DNA from: Mobula hypostoma
Lineage: Eukaryota
Reading direction: 5' to 3'
DNA length: 64,000 nt
Assembly (NCBI RefSeq): GCF_963921235.1
Contig: NC_086097.1
Span: 80,354,001 to 80,418,000, forward strand
A program made the position numbers and the translations under genes. Numbering within the stretch: the first letter of the stretch is position 1; each line of letters begins with the position of its first letter. The notes beneath the pieces were generated by a model that saw only the letters and a list, made by a program, of their open reading frames with translations, searched no databases and had not been told where the DNA came from. Below are positions 1 to 9,300 of the stretch, piece by piece.

Positions 1-178
1 CATGGAATTTCCATCGCTGGGGGTTGTTTGAGACTGGTGAGCTGGTCTTTCCACAAGGCAATGCGGGCTTCAGATGAGGTTGATTGTAATGGAACATGAA
101 GCTCTTCCTTGACTTTAGGCAGCTGGGTGTAGGAGTATGACCATGTAGAGGGTACCTCTCATCAGATGTTTGACGGAA

Positions 179-2704
179 TCATTCTTTCTTGCTGGGTACC
201 ATTCTTATATCAGGGGGAGTGATACCCGCCAGGATATATAGGCTGTTGGTGTTTGTTGGTTTTAAACAACTTTTGATAAGTCGGCAGCTTGCATTCAGAA
301 TGGCATCCATCTTCTTAGCATGAGTAGATCTTTCCCATGCAGGATTGGTGTGTTCAGCAGTGGAATAGCAAAGAGCAAGTGCACTGGTTCGCAATGTTTT
401 CGAGCTTGCTCCCCATTTTGTGTTAGTGAGCTTATTCAGGATGTTGTTTCGTGTGCTCACTTTTGCCTTTGTCTTATTGATGTGGTTCTTGAAAGGGAGG
501 CATCTGTTAAGGGTGACTGCTAAGTAGATCGGGTGCTCACAATGTGTCAGTGGTGCTTCACACCAGGTTACTTTAAGCTGTCGTTTGGCTTCACAGTTCC
601 TGAGGTGGAATGCACAAACCTGTGTCTTTGATGGGTTTGTGCGGAGGTGGTTTTCTTCATAGTAGGATGTTAGTCCCTCCAAGGCCTCAGAAAGCGTTTC
701 CTCCAGGGTGTTAAAATCAGTGCTTTGGGCAGTGATGCATAAGTCATTAGCATATATAAAACGGCGTGTGACATCATCTATAAGTTGGCCATTGGTGTAG
801 ATGTTGTTCAGCAGTGGTGTAAGAACACGTCCCTGAGGAAAACCATTCTTCTGAATACGCCATCTGCTACGCTTTCCACCCAGTTCAACATAGAACCGGT
901 GATTCTGAAGCATGCTTTCTAACAGCTCTGTTAAGTGAGTATCTTTTGTCATCTCTAGGATCTTGCAGAGGAGACGTCTCTGGTTCACTGTATCGTAAGC
1001 TGCTGGCAAGTCTACAAAAACAGCACCTGTTACCATCCCTTGCTCAAAACCATCTTCGATATATTGTGTGAGGTTGAGCAGTTGACTTGTTGTTGATTTG
1101 CCGGGGCGGAAACCTGCTTGCTCTGGAATGATCTTCTCATCTACAGTTGGTGCTATCCTATTGAGTATCAGGCGTTCAAACAGCTTAATGTGGCAAAGCA
1201 GTGAGAGTGGCCGTAAATTCTTAGGATCTGAGGGATCTTTTCCAGGCTTTAATAGTGCTATTACATGTGACTTCTTCCAAATATTAGGTAGCTTGTGTGT
1301 TGCCAGACAGTGGTTGAACAATTGTAGGAGCCATTTCTTTGCTTGCTGTCCAAAATACTTTATCTGCTCCGCTGGAATGTTGTCAAGACCAATTGCTTTC
1401 ACGTGTTTTAGACTAGATATACCAATTTCCAGCTCTTCCATGGTGAGTGGTCCAGTGAAGCCAGGGTCATCGCTGTACTTCTTCCTATCTAGTTGTGCTC
1501 TTGGTTGTTTCTTGTTGGTTTTTCCATTTAGGAGCAACTGGTATGCAGCTTGGTCAGCAGACACATTGGGATGTTGGGCAGCTTTCTTGGAATCGCCTCC
1601 AAGTTTTCCCATGAGAGACCATGCCTTCTTGCTGTTTTTTGTAAGATATATTGTCTCTATCAAGGTGTTGCAGGTGTTTTGACGCTCTTGAGAGATGCTT
1701 AACATCACCCTCTCACCGGTAGACATTGTTTCCTCTGAGAAGGGGCCAGATTCAAACATTGAGACATACTCTCTGTGGAGTTCAGCATTCTCTTTGGTGA
1801 GACCAGAGATGTAGTGTGCTCTACAACCTCGGGGGAACTTCCTTTTGGCTGGTTTCTGGACAGTTTTTGCAAACAGGTTGTAGTGCTCAGGTAGTGATTT
1901 AATACGTTTAACCTTATGGGCAAGTGCTCTTGTAAACCCGTTCCAATCGACCTTCTTGTAGTTGAAGCGTCTTTTGAATGGTACGATGGTTGGTAACACG
2001 GCTGCATTTATCTGAATACCAATAGGACGGTGCTGTGTCTGTGGTATTGGGCCTGTGACAGGCTTCTTGCAGAGGACAGCAATGTCGTTGCTGACAATGG
2101 CAAGATCTGGGTTATAACTGCACTTCCGGCGGGCACTGTAGAAGGAGGCTGGCAATTTAGGATTGTGGACGAGACTCAGCTGGTTAGCATCCATCTATTC
2201 TTTGACTGCTTCTCCATCGTTGTTGGACTCCTTGTACCCCCATTGGGTACTGTGGCTATTAAAGTCTCTAATGATGATCTGTGGTTTACTGTGCAGGTTG
2301 GATACAGGGTTAGAGAAGCTGAGAACTGTGCCCGGTGGCTTGTACACTGAGGTCACTACTACCTTGCTCAGCTCTACAGTTAGAATTTCGATGTTTTCCT
2401 TCTCTGTTTTAGAAGAGGCTTCTACGACTGAACCAGCTCTAACAAATACAGCACTGCCATATTGTTGATGAGGTCTTTCAATATCCAGGAACGTTCCTGG
2501 TACTTTTGGGCGGTTGTTTTCGCTTCCTCTGTGTGTCTCCTGTAGGCACAGGACATCACACTGCAACTCGTTGCAAGATGTAGCGAGGATGTTTTGTTTA
2601 GCTGCAGAGAATCCTTCAGCATTAGCAGATATAACAGATAATGCCGGTCTTAAAAAAGGCACGTGTTTCTGACATCGATGACCTCTGTCTTCAGGCATGA
2701 TCAA
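179..2704 (-). pseudogene. Vingi-like APE endonuclease/reverse transcriptase ORF, disrupted
   Basis: ORFs 2195-2704 and 179-2194 are in frame and separated by one TAG (2195-2197, likely TGG). A TGA at 179-181 is followed by in-frame FRQTSDERYPLHGHTPTPSCLKSRKSF. RT motifs QAGFRPGKST and GFPQG are present, and YADD is mutated to YAND. Confidence 0.85.
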
Positions 2705-2752
2705 ATCAATGGTACAAAAATGTTGAATACACTACTTGCTACGCGTGGTGAT

Positions 2753-2804
2753 GGTAGAATTGGTTGAAACAGGGCCATGACATGAACGCTTCTACCTTGG
2801 CCCC
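2753..2804 (-). ncRNA. HDV-like (CPEB3-like) self-cleaving ribozyme motif at the retrotransposon 5' end, partly decayed
   Basis: Minus strand reads GGGGCC-AA-GGTAGAA-GCG-TTCATGT-CAT-GGCCCT-GT-TTCAA-CCAA-TTCTACC. P1 is GGGGCC/GGCCCT with a G1.U wobble, P2 is GGTAGAA/TTCTACC (7 bp), P3 is GCG/CAT (CGT before CpG decay), L3 is 7 nt, and J4/2 is CCAA. Confidence 0.75.
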
Positions 2805-2993
2805 AATGCATGGTAATTATGGGAAAGATTGAAGGGAAGAAAGCAAGAGGAAGACAAAGACAAATGATGATGGAGACAGCAGCCAGAGAACTGGAAATGT
2901 ATACCAATGAATTGACCCACTTGACCCGAAACAGGAGTGTGTGGGCCATGGCAGTCAAAGCTCAAACTGGGCACAGCATCTGATGATGATGAT
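2805..2993 (+). mobile_element. RTE-clade LINE 3' fragment with (TGA)n tail
   Basis: Translates as MVIMGKIEGKKARGRQRQMMMETAARELEM...RNRSVWAMAV and ends in TGATGATGATGAT. Confidence 0.7.
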
Positions 2994-4489
2994 CAGAGAA
3001 AGAGGTACCCAGCCAAGGTGGAGATGAAAGGGGAGTTTCTTCTCTAAGGGTTGTGTTTGTTTGGAATGTTCTACCTTAGAGAGCTGGGGAGGCTGAGTCA
3101 TTAGCATACTCAAGGATGAGAAAGGCAATTTTTGAACCATGAGTGAGTCACTGGTTATGTGGAGCAGACGAGAAGGGTCAAATTCAGAACAGTTGTTGAA
3201 TGATGAACAGATTGGAGAGGCTTTTTGGCAAACTTCTGTTCCTACACCTTGAGCTCTCCAAAAGTTATTTTGAGATGACACATGACACTTAACAAGCTTA
3301 TTGTAGCACTATCTACAAATGTGATAGGTGCCACATGACAATGAAAATGATGCAACTAATGATTTAAATATACTATAGATGTATTGTTCTACTGCTGAGC
3401 TATTTGTAGTGTCAGCTTGTCTGAGAATATTCATTTGTTTTCCAATTATCTTTTAACAGTTTGTGAATTGGCACAATTAGAGCAACCTACTCAGGAGAAC
3501 TGAGAGTAAACACAGCTGGTGTGGAAATTATCGACAGTGCGTCTTGAAAGTGCAAGCTGTCTGAATATAGAATACATATAGTTACAATTTTAGAATACAT
3601 ATATTGTCCTCTGAAGTATCAAATGAGAGAATGCTTGGTTACAAATCCTCTCTTTGTCCATCTACCTACATACCCAGTACAAGTTATCTAAAAACTAGAT
3701 TGAAGTTTCAGATACCATCAGACCTTTCACTGTAACTTTAATTCGGTTGCCTTTAAAGGAACAATGTCTGATTTGACAGTAATAGGTCTTCACACAAAGT
3801 GATGGAACTCCTTTCAGAGAAGGACTCAGCAACAGCTGCTTTGCAATTCAATCAGTCTAACATGAAAAGAGGATCAGATCTTTCATTGCAGACCGTGCTA
3901 TTTCAATTTGGGAGGAATAAGGTCAAAATTAAATCCAGTTTCAAGAAGTATACTGCAAAGTATTTTTGTTGAAATGCAAGACTGTTATCATAATATTTTC
4001 CTTTCTGTGTTTTGCCCAAACAACCATGCATGGCATTGGCCTGGAATATGTTGATAATGAGCTGATAGTTTTCTAGATGACTGCAGGTCAATGCACCTAG
4101 GGCAGATGCATGAGATGCATTGGAGATCAAATGCCAAAGTCTCTGATCTCCTCTTTGTCCCTAGACTCACCACTGTACAACATAGGAAAGGAGGTCTTTC
4201 AAGTATATTGTATTTCTCATTAAGATAATGGTTAATCTATCTTAGCTTCATTTTCTTTCACTGTTCCCATATTCCTTGATTCCTTTAGTCACCAGAGATC
4301 TATCAAGAATGTCTTGGATGAGTTCAATGAATATATTCTTGTTTGAAAAAGCAAATGAGAATCTGTACACAATAGTCCAGTTAAAGTCTCACCAAAATTC
4401 TCTGAAATTGCAATCAGAATATTCTTTGCACAGATAGATGCAATCACAAGGAAGGCAGGCCAGCTACTTTACTACTTTAGATAAGGTAA

Positions 4490-4649: not shown

Positions 4650-5945
4650 TTACAGACCTCAAGCTCGAATAAGCCCCTTCAACCACTACCCTCTGTCTTC
4701 AATGCGCAAGCCAGTTCTGAATCCAAACAGCCAATTGGCCGTGGATCCAATGTATTTTAATCTTCTGGATTAGCCTCCCATGAGGAACTTTGTTAAACGC
4801 CTTACTATGGCATTTAACATCCACTGCCCTACCCTCATCAGTCTCTTTTGTTACCCTGTCAAAAAACTCAATCAATTTGATAAGATGTGACCTGCGCCAC
4901 ATGGGCTCTCCCTAATTAGACCATGGGTTTCTAAATGATCATGCATTCTATCTCTAAGAATTTTATCCAGCAATTTCCCTGCAACTGATGTGAGACCCAC
5001 TAGTCTGTAGTTCCCTGGATTTTTTCTTGTTCCCCTCGAAACTGGAGGTACAATATTAGCCACTTGCCAGTCTTCCAGGACCTTGCCTGTGGCTAGAGAG
5101 ATACTGGTCAAGGCCCCAGCAATCTCGTTCCGTCTTCTTCAATAACCTGGGGTCAATCCCATCAGGCTCTGGGGACCTATCCTCCTTAATACTCATTAGG
5201 AGGCCCAACACTTCCTCCTCCCTGACCTCTAATGCCCTAATACACTCAGCAGTGATTTCCTGGTCCTCCATATCCTTTTCCTTGCTAAATACTGAAGTAC
5301 TTATTAAATACCTCACTCACATCCTCTGCATCCAAGCAAATGTTCCCCCCTTTATCCATGAGTGTTCCCCCTCTATACTTAACTTCCAAAGCTTTACATA
5401 CTTTTCCTTTTTCTACTTCATTAAATTAATCACCTTGCTGGACATCCAAGGTTCTCTTATCTTTCCATCCCCATCCTTCCTTCTCACAGGAACATACCTT
5501 TCCTGTACTCTGTGCAATTGATCTTTAAACACCCTCCACATGTCTGATGTGGATTTGCCAGATAAAAGATACTCCCAATGAACTCTTCATAGTTCCTGCC
5601 TAATCCCCTCATAATCTGGCCTACTCCAATTTAAAACTCTCCTACAAAGACCATACCTATCCTTATCTATAACTATCCTGAAAGTTAAGGAGTTGTGGTC
5701 ACTGTTCCCTAACTGCTCACCCACTGAAAGGTCAGTCACCTGGCTACGCTCATTACCCAACACCAGGTCCAGTATGGCCCCTCCTCTCGTTGGACCATCT
5801 GCGTATTGATTAAAGAAACCTTCCTGGAAACACTTAACAAATTCAGCTCCATCTAAACCCCTTGCACTAAGAAGGTCCCAGTTTATATTAGGGAAGTTGA
5901 AATCCCCCATGACAACAACCCTATTATTTTTATATATTTCCTTAA
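4650..5945 (-). mobile_element. CR1 LINE internal fragment (endonuclease to RT N-terminus), degenerate
   Basis: Peptides VVVMGDFNFPNINW, PTRGGAILDLVL, LGNSDHN, PGNYRLVGLTSV and KAFNKVPHGRL lie in broken frames. Confidence 0.85.
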
Positions 5946-6245
5946 CCTCCCACGACACACCGAATTACTCAGAGGCACCGACATTCAGCCCGCCCATCTC
6001 CAGAGCCACAAGATCCCGGGACTCTGAAGGCAACCTAATCTGTAAGGCCACATCCTTGGCATATTGAATAACAGCCCGTTGTGAAACCCCGAGAGCAGGT
6101 CCCATTCCCACAAAGAACTGTAGTCAGTGTGTAACTCCCGGTCAGGGTCTTCAAAGGAACCCCAAAGGGAAAAAAAATCAAGATATTAAAGATAGAAATA
6201 GAGCTGTTTCCAAAGATGTAAGCAAAGGAGTTGCTGTTAGGCCAG
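5946..6245 (-). repeat. Unclassified interspersed repeat, 5' part; same family as 23755-24551
   Basis: Its reverse complement aligns by eye with 23757-24050 (CTCCTTTGCTT.CATCTTTG.AAACAGCTCTATTTCTATCTTTAATAT...GGAGTTACACACT). Confidence 0.7.
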
Positions 6246-6324: not shown

Positions 6325-9300
6325 GAGAAAGTAAGGATGAAATATTGAGGCTTTATAAGGCATCAATCAGATCACATTTGGAGTATTGTGAGCAGTTTTG
6401 GGCCCCTTATCTAAGAAAGGAGGAGTTAGGATTGGAGATAGTCCAGAGAAGGTCCACGAAAATGATCCCAGGAATGTAAGAGTTAATACATGAGGAGCAT
6501 TTGATGGCTCTGGGCTTGTACTCACTGGAGTTTAGAAGAATGAGGGAGGATCTGACTGAAACATATTGAATATTGAAAGGTGTGGATAGGGTAGATGTGG
6601 AGAGGATGTAGTGGGGGAATCTAGCACTAGAGGGTAGGGCCTCAAAATTGAGGGATGTTCGAAGTTAAGTTTATTATCACCACATACAACACTGAGATTC
6701 TTTTTCTGTGGGCAAACCTATAGAACAGCAACTGTAAGCTGTAAACAAATTGTGCAAATGCTGGTATAAATAGGAATAGATAATAAGCATGAAATAATAC
6801 CATAACAGAGTCCTTAAATGAGTGTAGCTATCCCCTTTTGTACAAGAACCTGATCGTTGAGGGGTAGTAACTGTTCTTGAACCTGGCGGTGCAAGTTCTG
6901 AGGGACTTGTACCTTCTACCTGATGTCAGCAGTGAGAAATGAACGTGGCCTGGGTGGTGAAGATCTTTGATGATGGATGCTATTTTTCTACAGCAATGTT
7001 TCATGTAGATCTGCTGGATGGTAGGGAGGGTTTTACCCATGATGTCCTGGACTGAATCTACTCCAAGGCATTGGTGTTTCCATACCAGGCCATAATGCAG
7101 CTAATCAACACATTTTCCACCACACATCTATAGATATTTGCCAAGGTTTTTGATGACATGCTGAACCTCCGTGGACTCCTGAGGTGATATTGTGCTTTCT
7201 TCGCAATAGTATTTATAGGATGGGTCCAGGACAGGTCCTCTGAGATAGTGACACCAAAGAATTTAAAGTTACTGACCCTCTCCACTTCTGATGATTACTA
7301 GCTCATGGACCTCCAGCTTCCCTCTCCTGAATCTACAATCAGATCCTTGATCTTATTGAAATTGAGTGAGAGGTTGTTGTTATCACACCACTCAGCCAAG
7401 TTTTCAATCTCCCTCCTGTATGCTGATTCATCACCACCTTTGATACAGCCCACAGCAGTGGTATCGTCAGCAAACTTGTATATGGTGTTGGAGCTATGCT
7501 TAGCCACACAGTTACAGGTGTAAAATGAGTAGAGCAGGGGGATAAGTACACATCCCTGTGATGCTCCTGTGCTGATGGAGATCGTGGAGGAGATGTTTTT
7601 GCCAATCCGAACTGACTGGATTTCCTCTCTCTACAAGTGAGGAAATCCAGGATCCAATTGCACAAGGGGGTATTGAGGCCCAGGTCTTGAAGTTTACTGG
7701 TTAGTTTAGAGGGTGTTAAATGCCAAGCTGTAATTGACAAAGAGCATTCTGATGTATGCATCTTTGCTGTCCAGATGTTCCAGGGTTGTGTGAAGAGCCA
7801 ATGTGAATTGGAGTGGATCTAAATCACCATTCAGAGAGGAGATGATATGCTTCAACACCAGCCTCTCAAAACACTTCATTACAGTGGCTGTAAGTGCCAC
7901 TAGGTGATAGTCATTTAGACAGGATACCACGATCTTCTTGGGCAACAGTACGATTGAACCCTACTGGAGGCAGGTGGGGTGCTACACACTGCCAGAACGA
8001 GTGGTTGAAGATATCCGTGAATACACCGACCAGTTGGTTGGCACAAGTCTTCAGTACTTGGCCAGGTACTCTGTCTGAACCAGATGCTTTCATTTGATTC
8101 ACTCTCTTGAAGGCAGCCCACACATCATCCTCAGATGCTGAGACCAAATGATCATCAGGAGACATGGGGGTGCACGATGGGTCCCCCCTGTTCTGGTGGT
8201 CAAAGCGAGCATAGAAGGCATTGAGCTCATTTGCAAGTGAGTCTCTGCTGTCCCCTATTTCACAAGATTTAGCTTCATAGGAGGGTATAGCATTCAAATC
8301 CTGCCACAGCTGTTGAGCATCCCTTGTTGATTTCAGTCTAGTCCGGAAGTTCCACTCTGCCCCAGAGGTGGCGTTCCGGAGATCATTTCTGCACCTCTTG
8401 TAGCATTCTTGATCTCCAGACTTGAATGCCTCTGATCCAGCTCCCAGCAGGTTCCGGATTTCATTGTCCATCCAGGGCTTCTGATTGGGTTGAACCTGAA
8501 TGATTTCGTGGACACACTCATCTCCAGCTGTTTTAATAAAATCTGTAACAACCCCGGTGAAGTCATTCGGGTCCTCAGATGTGTTCTTGAACTCGGCTCA
8601 GTCCACTGACTCCAGGCAATCCTGTAAATGTTCCTCAGCCTCCCATGACCATCTCTTAATTATCTTAATCTCTGGAGCCTTGGTCTGTCTGAATACAGGT
8701 GGCAGGAGTAGAGCCAAGTGATCTGACTTGCCAAAATGCAGTCTTGGGAAGGGACGATAGTCATTCCTTATCGTAGTGTAGCAGTGGTCTAGTGTCTTGG
8801 GGCCTCTGGTGGAACAGGTTATGTGCTGGTGATGATTGGGCAGGGTTTTTTTTCAAACAGGCCTGGTTAAGGTCACCGACTATGATTTGAAATGTGTCGT
8901 TGTGGGTCGTTTCTATTTTACAGACAGCATTGTGCAGTTTTGTGAGTGCTTGCTCATAACGGACCGCTGGTGGTCTATAACTGTGGTTAGGATCACGGAT
9001 GTGAACTCCTGAGGCAAATAGAATGGTCTACATTTGATCATTAGTTGTTCTAAGTCAGGGGAACAAGAAGTCAACGTAACCCCAACATCCGTTCACCAAT
9101 GAGGATTGACTGGAAAGCAAACTCTGCCACCTCTTTCCTTACCTGAATTCGAGACTCAAGCCATTCTGGAAATCATAAAAACTTCTGGTCGGATAGCTGC
9201 ATCCGGCGTGTTTGCTGTTAACCAACTCTCAATGCAACAAACAATTGAGATCTGCCTCAGATACAGTAGCCTTGCCCTGAGATCATCAGTCTTATTTTGC

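Follow-up and report, generated by a model that had tools for sequence, protein, structure and literature searches.

The 5′ end of a dead full-length Vingi-type LINE very probably carries a homologue of the mammalian CPEB3 ribozyme

The window, that is, the whole stretch of 64,000 nt analyzed here, holds on its minus strand what is very probably the 5′ end of a dead full-length Vingi-type LINE carrying a ribozyme homologous to that of mammalian CPEB3, for which a self-cleavage step is proposed. Judged by its sequence, the head of the element (nt 1-52) is a CPEB3-type HDV-like ribozyme fold that lacks P4. What the window contains is an inactive fossil copy with a mismatch in P3 and a broken ORF. 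Nucleotides of the head are numbered from G1, which is window position 2804 on the minus strand, and its parts are as follows.

2753..2804, minus strand: the whole fold, a CpG-decayed copy of a P4-less CPEB3-type HDV-like ribozyme (RF00622 score of 29.2 bits, sister copies, covariation)
2804-2799, minus strand: P1, nt 1-6, partner nt 29-34
2798-2797, minus strand: J1/2, AA, read from the sequence
2796-2790, minus strand: P2, nt 9-15, partner nt 46-52
2789-2787, minus strand: P3, nt 16-18, partner nt 26-28
2786-2780, minus strand: L3, nt 19-25
2779-2777, minus strand: P3′, nt 26-28
2776-2771, minus strand: P1′, nt 29-34
2770-2769, minus strand: J1/4, GU, read from the sequence
2768-2764, minus strand: 5-nt linker where P4 would be, read from the sequence
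2763-2760, minus strand: J4/2, CCAA, with the candidate catalytic C at 2763
2759-2753, minus strand: P2′, nt 46-52

The 52 nt that the initial annotation had quoted as a ribozyme capping a Vingi element were located, letter for letter, at 2804..2753 on the minus strand, and its reading of the parts held. They follow the order P1-P2-P3-L3-P3′-P1′-J1/4-J4/2-P2′ of HDV-like ribozymes, and a G1-U34 wobble, read directly from the window copy, closes P1 at the predicted cleavage site. P2 is perfect in this copy, nt 9-15 forming seven Watson-Crick pairs with nt 46-52, and P1 has the predicted 6 bp, with the 5-nt linker in place of P4. In the alignment to the Rfam CPEB3 model, nt 42 (2763), the candidate catalytic C, falls on the residue that opens J4/2. 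P3 is imperfect in the window copy, where GCG faces CAT to give a G-U pair, a C-A mismatch and a G-C pair. The residues of the putative P1.1, a helix of 2 bp, are as in the CPEB3 ribozyme, UUC at the start of L3 and GU in J1/4. The 27-nt core of the head occurs once in the window, and none of 100 shuffles matched it with up to three mismatches. Thermodynamic folding of the best sister copy yielded nested P1 and P3 as the MFE structure; nested-fold energies were not better than those of shuffled sequences (z of +0.13 for the best copy and -0.75 for the window copy), the pseudoknot being outside the folding model.

Among mammalian self-cleaving RNAs, the CPEB3 ribozyme, reportedly the subject of Salehi-Ashtiani et al. 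in 2006, has been studied best, and it has been connected with memory. In a permissive scan of 251 nt, its Rfam model (RF00622, CPEB3_ribozyme) matched the window copy with 29.2 bits (E 4.3e-6), which is under the gathering cut-off of 35 bits for this family, and a scan of the whole window at the Rfam gathering thresholds gave no match. No ribozyme family besides RF00622, the other HDV-type Rfam families included, matched the 251-nt stretch at E ≤ 10. P4 of RF00622 is deleted in the alignment, 6-7 nt standing for 19-21 model positions. The resemblance of the window head to RF00622 exceeds chance. According to a preprint on the CPEB3 crystal structure, the first J4/2 residue of that ribozyme is the catalytic C57, its L3 consists of 7 nt containing an ACGU palindrome, and its P1.1 comprises one G-C pair and a U-U pair, with G37 and U38. 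An older proposal cited there derives HDV ribozymes from the CPEB3 ribozyme.

We searched the host genome (3.48 Gb) for further copies. First-look candidates numbered 52 with element nt 1-205 and 4729 with the 3′ region, the usual surplus of 5′-truncated LINE copies. RF00622 was scored on 59 candidates and gave 43 matches at E ≤ 10. As the initial annotation had anticipated in pointing to this model, it matches the site, and ten sister copies, all from the P4-less family, exceed the Rfam cut-off (35.3-43.8 bits; best E 2.4e-7). The majority sequence of 38 distinct head copies in the family alignment is GGGGCCAAGGTAGAAGCGTTCACGTCGCGGCCCTGTTTCAACCAATTCTACC, in which P1, P2 and P3 are intact, J1/4 is GT and J4/2 is CCAA. 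The predicted family consensus was borne out in that L3 TTCACGT and P3′ CGC are found in most of the 38 copies (21 and 24, respectively). C42 is retained in 36 copies and nt 1 is G in 23, and the pairs are all standard for P2 in 30 copies, for P3 in 25 and for P1 in 13; none of the 38 matches the majority 52-mer exactly. The deviations of the window copy had been read as CpG decay, correctly, as C22T, G27A and C28T are all CpG transitions. Family-wide, 50 of the 103 substitutions in nt 7-52 are CpG transitions, which fall at 8 of these 46 positions.

The family shares with the mammalian CPEB3 ribozyme (RF00622) the order of the fold, with the majority identical over AGAAGCGUUCACGUCGCGGCCC, the 7-nt L3 UUCACGU with its ACGU palindrome, J1/4 GU, the C at the catalytic position first in J4/2, and a P2′ that starts with UUCU. 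It differs in having the 5-nt linker instead of P4, a P1 of 6 rather than 7 bp, a compensatory C-G to U-A change in P2, and CCAA rather than CGAA in J4/2. The CPEB3 ribozyme is also single-copy, in CPEB3 intron 2, whereas the family is multi-copy and stands at LINE 5′ ends.

The element that carries the window head is 3101 nt long with G1 as its first base, and its single ORF for APE and RT has lost its coding capacity. Its features other than the head are listed below.

2805..2814, minus strand: 5′ copy of a 10-bp target-site duplication, ACCATGCATT, read directly
L086 6703..6694, outside the window: 3′ copy of the target-site duplication, ACCATGCATT, directly after the element 3′ end
2699..2752, minus strand: rest of the 106-nt 5′ UTR (element nt 53-106), starting with ATCACCAC
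2195..2698, minus strand: start of the ORF, with the ATG at 2698 and the AP-endonuclease domain; in-frame stop at the end
179..2194, minus strand: second part of the ORF, including the reverse transcriptase domain; frame broken at 179
1..178, minus strand: C-terminal coding remainder, running beyond the window

The 3′ copy of the duplication lies 297 nt past the left edge of the window. Because the 10-bp duplication flanks both ends, this is a complete insertion with G1 as its first base. The leader between head and ATG is 54 nt long, and element nt 53 onward begins ACCACCACCAC in the family as against ATCACCAC in the window copy. Pfam matched the AP-endonuclease (Exo_endo_phos, E 1e-5; Exo_endo_phos_2, E 1.1e-5) and the reverse transcriptase (RVT_1, E 1.8e-24); past the left edge of the window the element continues with a CxC..H..C knuckle and terminates in ...GATAAGAAGAAG at L086 6704. 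This 3′ end was defined from match coordinates, all 39 other long genome matches stopping at query 593-601. No RNase H was detected in the element by Pfam, which gave Exo_endo_phos, Exo_endo_phos_2 and RVT_1 only, nor was a precomputed RNase H family found among the 120 homologues listed. The listed homologues measure ~970-1000 aa, mostly on contigs of ~3.0-3.4 kb, and come from fishes, Anolis, amphioxus, echinoderms and insects; the one from Anolis carolinensis has 48% protein identity. Elements of the Vingi clade are compact and have one ORF, which encodes APE and RT but lacks an RNase H domain (PMC13708176); the element, at 3101 nt, has this architecture. Together with the homology of its head to those of named Vingi elements, as distinct from an RT phylogeny, this supports its assignment as a Vingi-type LINE.

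Two further LINE fragments lie on the minus strand of the window, an AP-endonuclease fragment at 5587-5964 (Exo_endo_phos_2, E 1.7e-8; LINE debris) and a reverse transcriptase fragment at 7298-7630 (RVT_1, E 1.8e-6, below the Pfam cut-off). Given their order, they derive from different elements.

We searched metagenome contigs for relatives of the element with an alignment of 19 homologues as the query and obtained 80 loci. The N-terminus was present at 23 of them, or 21 distinct loci when L097, L098 and L099 are counted once; these three are identical over 235 nt, flank included, and are uninformative on the 5′ boundary there. Strong HDV-like folds were found at four of the 21 distinct loci, L097 (=L098=L099), L093, L104 and L135, each 376-392 nt upstream of the ORF match, with LINE proteins that are 42-51% identical. 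L097 scored 55.6 bits with RF00622 and has P4 as well as a mammalian-type P2. The matches of L093 and L135 to the F. prausnitzii HDV model were weak (30.9 bits, E 0.087, and 33.1 bits, E 0.026, respectively), and the fold in L104 was detected by our own descriptor alone. No fold was found by two descriptors at 16 of the 21 distinct N-terminal loci, several of these contigs being too short upstream to tell; L106 gave one weak, probably chance match with the first descriptor. Both descriptors are loose, with 60 and 39 matches per 348 kb of shuffled sequence. In Rfam scans, which covered 19 of the 21 distinct loci, no ribozyme matched beyond those named, a search of genome contigs returned six loci, none with the N-terminus, and an exact 22-nt core pattern had no match in viral contigs. 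Two Vingi-like elements, L091 (~290-420) and L092 (~90-190), have in common a conserved GC-rich stretch, GGTGGG...GGGCCCCACC, that lies some hundreds of nt before the ORF; neither HDV descriptor fits it, and it might be a different 5′ structure.

Base pairing was compared across seven lineages, namely the host family, two other host-genome sequences and the four metagenome loci. The table of pairs was made by script. P2 was paired in 49 of 49 cells, as against 9-22 of 49 with the 3′ strand slid, a count inflated by the parser, which picked the P2 register for best pairing; the compensatory changes are unaffected, and at least two pair types occur at every P2 position across the seven lineages. 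P3 was paired in 21 of 21 cells in the seven lineages. For P1, the five intact lineages showed pairing in all 30 cells, the G1 pair being G-U in four of the five and G-C in one. L3 reads TYCNNGY in the intact lineages, and its sixth base is A in the P1-impaired L087 and L088. J1/4 starts with G in six of seven lineages and with T in L087. J4/2 is C-N-A-A in six, the exception being again L087, a P1-impaired single-copy relic with TGAA and no J4/2 cytosine. P1, P2 and P3 covary across lineages: the compensatory changes to which the initial annotation had looked for support were found in all three helices.

The annotation had also placed the boundary of the element at G1, and the flanks of the copies agree with this. 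In the window, homology ends at G1, and the adjoining 66 nt upstream belong to another high-copy repeat. Copies in the genome begin at G1, none of the 38 having a common sense sequence upstream. Eight stand in sense orientation with unrelated DNA upstream. In three bipartite copies the head is followed at once by the terminal 110-215 nt of the element, and in the remaining 27 it is immediately preceded by an antisense stretch from the element's 3′ part. The antisense part in these 27 runs from ~nt 3100 down to a variable point (412-2982) and meets the head most often at nt 1-3 (21 copies), less often at nt 4-5 (five) or nt 9 (one). For 25 of the 27, the head arm ends within nt 68-98. Seen from the opposite strand, the rearranged copies are 5′-truncated insertions capped by an inverted head, as expected of twin priming with RT run-off at the RNA 5′ end. 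Most of them are independent events, because their junction points differ.

These inverted-cap loci are L006, L010, L013-L019, L021, L047-L055, L058 and L071-L084. Their priming zone is narrow and lies just 3′ of the ribozyme fold (nt 68-98), which, by analogy, suggests that the second-strand primer may be held near the RNA 5′ end, perhaps by a head-bound protein as in R2. The bipartite derivatives L008, L020 and L061, in which the head extends from nt 1 to nt 73-283, are non-autonomous elements of the internal-deletion type known for Vingi in hedgehog. The 66-nt repeat directly upstream of the window insertion (2805-2870, minus strand) is very young and abundant, with 100% identity at no fewer than 19 places and 1047 first-look candidates; the initial annotation had taken it for RTE DNA.

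For the origin of the end at G1, we propose the following course. Live copies would presumably have been transcribed from upstream DNA or within longer transcripts, and the ribozyme would have folded as a nested double pseudoknot and cut immediately 5′ of G1. The element RNA would then have started with the intact ribozyme, bearing a 5′-OH, followed by the 54-nt leader and the ORF, and this ribozyme-headed RNA would have been the template for target-primed reverse transcription. Every full-length insertion would start at G1 because the cleaved RNA templates reverse transcription. The fold may also have had a role in translation or in protection of the 5′ end. Among the RNA runs listed, none contains the sequence. 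From the sequences compared here, self-cleavage of a longer transcript 5′ of G1 appears to be the most likely mechanism.

Genomic copies show where the template RNA ended, at G1, and not how this end arose. An internal promoter in the head could also place it there, as Pr77 does in L1Tc, with the fold being structural and non-cleaving; the short P1 and the missing P4 would suit such a role. L1Tc unites promoter and ribozyme within the same 77 nt, according to PMC3383444. The two mechanisms are not mutually exclusive. Against a purely structural fold, all three helices are conserved together with the catalytic C, the wobble at G1 and those residues of L3 and J1/4 that P1.1 requires, and the compensatory changes across lineages point to selection on a fold in which G1 sits exactly at the scissile position. 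We therefore regard a promoter-set end with a non-cleaving fold as improbable and favor self-cleavage.

L1TcRz offers the closest parallel in position, being an HDV-like ribozyme on the very first nt of an APE-type LINE of a sister clade. It cleaves at +1 and stays on the element RNA. It has no sequence similarity to the head by Rfam, and it also serves as an internal promoter. The HDV-like ribozymes of other LINE clades act in 5′ processing of co-transcripts and are retained in the 5′ UTR, as cited in PMC5786205 and PMC8256844; they differ from the head in sequence, in the presence of P4 and, often, in large peripheral domains.

Sequences of Vingi 5′ ends have been printed, under another interest, in the supplement of Kojima 2018 (PMC5786205), where CENSOR aligns the alligator SINE2-1_AMi to four named Vingi elements at their 5′ ends, namely Vingi-2_Gav nt 2-74, Vingi-4_Crp nt 1-64, Vingi-1_BF nt 8-69 and Vingi-2_SPur nt 395-451. 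The heads were viewed there as LINE 5′ parts feeding SINE bodies; Vingi is absent from the ribozyme-bearing clades named in section 23 of that paper, and the heads are not called ribozymes. Leaving out distal P4, the Vingi-2_Gav head, GGGGCCATAGCAGAAGCGTTCACGTCGCGACCCCTGTCAGG...CCTGCGAATTCTGCTAA, agrees by our own count from the printouts with the Rfam CPEB3 consensus used for comparison, GGGGGCCAcaGCAGAAGCGUUCACGUCGCGGCCCCUGUCAGauucUGgugaauCUGCGAAUUCUGCU, at 52 of 54 positions. Counted likewise, the host family shares 32 of the first 36 nt with Vingi-2_Gav. The initial annotation had suggested that a Vingi-type element could be a relative or the source of the CPEB3 ribozyme, and this link is supported by the near identity of named Vingi 5′ ends to the CPEB3 consensus, P4 stem included. 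These Repbase heads are homologous to the family and lie at or near nt 1 of elements of similar size (3128 bp in Vingi-2_Gav). They differ from it in P2, which is GCAGAA/UUCUGC of the mammalian type or, in the invertebrates sea urchin and amphioxus, AGGA/UCCU as against AGAA/UUCU in the others. Unlike the family, the Repbase Vingi heads and the SINE2-1_AMi body keep the P4 hairpin. The match of the family to named, P4-bearing Vingi heads supports the Vingi assignment and, by sequence comparison, the view that the P4-less form is a variant derived from a P4-bearing ancestor.

A likeness of this kind could also reflect convergence under the constraints of the HDV-like fold, in which only six nt are invariant according to a review (PMC8256844) that treats the question of convergence as unclear. 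Constraint on the fold would hardly account for the helices, however: the LINE lineages compared here differ freely in P1, P2 and P3, and yet the 52 of 54 positions shared by Vingi-2_Gav and the Rfam consensus include both strands of P2 and the base of P4. The P4 stem of SINE2-1_AMi, CAGATTC/GAATCTG, is likewise that of the mammalian consensus, and RF00622 alone among the HDV-type Rfam families matches the window. Convergence is thus very unlikely, and kinship of the window and Vingi heads with the mammalian CPEB3 ribozyme is strongly supported by sequence similarity.

In lacking P4, with a core of ~50-55 nt, the family resembles drz-Mtgn (Riccitelli et al. 2014) and the phage theta ribozymes. 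According to PMC10879173, those come from metagenomes and phages, whereas the family here belongs to a eukaryotic LINE, and the origin of P4-less minimal HDV-like ribozymes is described in that paper as undetermined. The family provides a eukaryotic, retrotransposon-borne example of such a ribozyme. Activity of the short-P1, P4-less form has been shown in the metagenomic minimal ribozymes only, the family here being known from sequence.

The CPEB3 ribozyme is most simply explained as a domesticated Vingi-type head. More specifically, it quite probably goes back to the head of such a LINE, or of a SINE or bipartite element of Vingi descent, inserted into CPEB3 intron 2 in an early mammal, such ribozymes being ancient and still widespread in Vingi across deuterostomes. 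The human genome retains an ancient trace of Vingi, X12_LINE (PMC5753468). Some of the HDV-like ribozymes described in sea urchin and amphioxus in 2009-2011 may belong to elements now classed as Vingi. A limited check of the literature, with key papers of 2009-2011 outside its range, found no paper that links Vingi or retrotransposons with a CPEB3-type ribozyme.

Similarity alone gives no proof of direction, and LINEs can transduce host RNA or template-switch onto it, so that the ribozyme might have passed from a mammalian CPEB3 transcript into a LINE and spread with it. The distribution of the heads makes such a transfer extremely unlikely. The same head is found in Vingi of sea urchin, amphioxus and crocodilians and also on metagenome contigs, whereas the CPEB3 ribozyme itself has been reported in mammals only (PMC8233481). 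It is present as well in the host genome, where no RF00622 match exceeds 43.8 bits and all 43 lie away from the five loci at which PF16366 detected a CPEB ZZ domain. Transfer from LINE to gene is the likelier direction, because the LINE heads have the wide host range.

With a LINE origin, the CPEB3 ribozyme, held to be mammal-only and without outgroups, gains a concrete source family and many outgroups, and its origin is now testable by comparative genomics and cleavage assays. The ribozyme would matter for applied work as well. Vingi-1 of Anolis is under development as a gene-insertion tool in which the native 5′ UTR is kept (PMC13708176); if the proposal is true, native Vingi 5′ UTRs in gene-writing constructs contain a self-cleaving ribozyme, which affects RNA design.

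Two of the RF00622 matches in the host genome, both on C22, bear P4 and were considered as true CPEB3 orthologues. They were rejected, as both lie away from the CPEB loci; one is a relic present in single copy whose P1 has 4 bp, the other a copy of a high-copy tRNA-SINE. The single-copy sequence, at L067 1513-1575 (C22:47905489-47905551), scores 34.5 bits with RF00622 and is CPEB3-like, with P4 present, a perfect 7-bp P2 (GGAAGGA/TCCTTCC), P3 GCA/TGC and a P1 of only 4 bp; it could be either a relic or a copy that was domesticated.

The SINE is ~265 nt long and is represented by L175-L179 (e.g. L175, C22:62251350-62251950, minus strand), with 2939 first-look candidates and copies that are 88-91% alike. 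A tRNA-like head comes first, followed by a body, an A-run, a P4-bearing Vingi-type ribozyme module and a tail that resembles the 3′ end of the LINE described here. SINEs of this kind have been derived from bipartite Vingi elements (Kojima 2018, PMC5786205). The ribozyme module has P1 GGGTC/GACCC, P2 GTCAGGA/TCCTGAC, L3 TTCATAT and J4/2 CCAA, and it probably cleaves poorly or not at all, since the copies retain the tRNA head.
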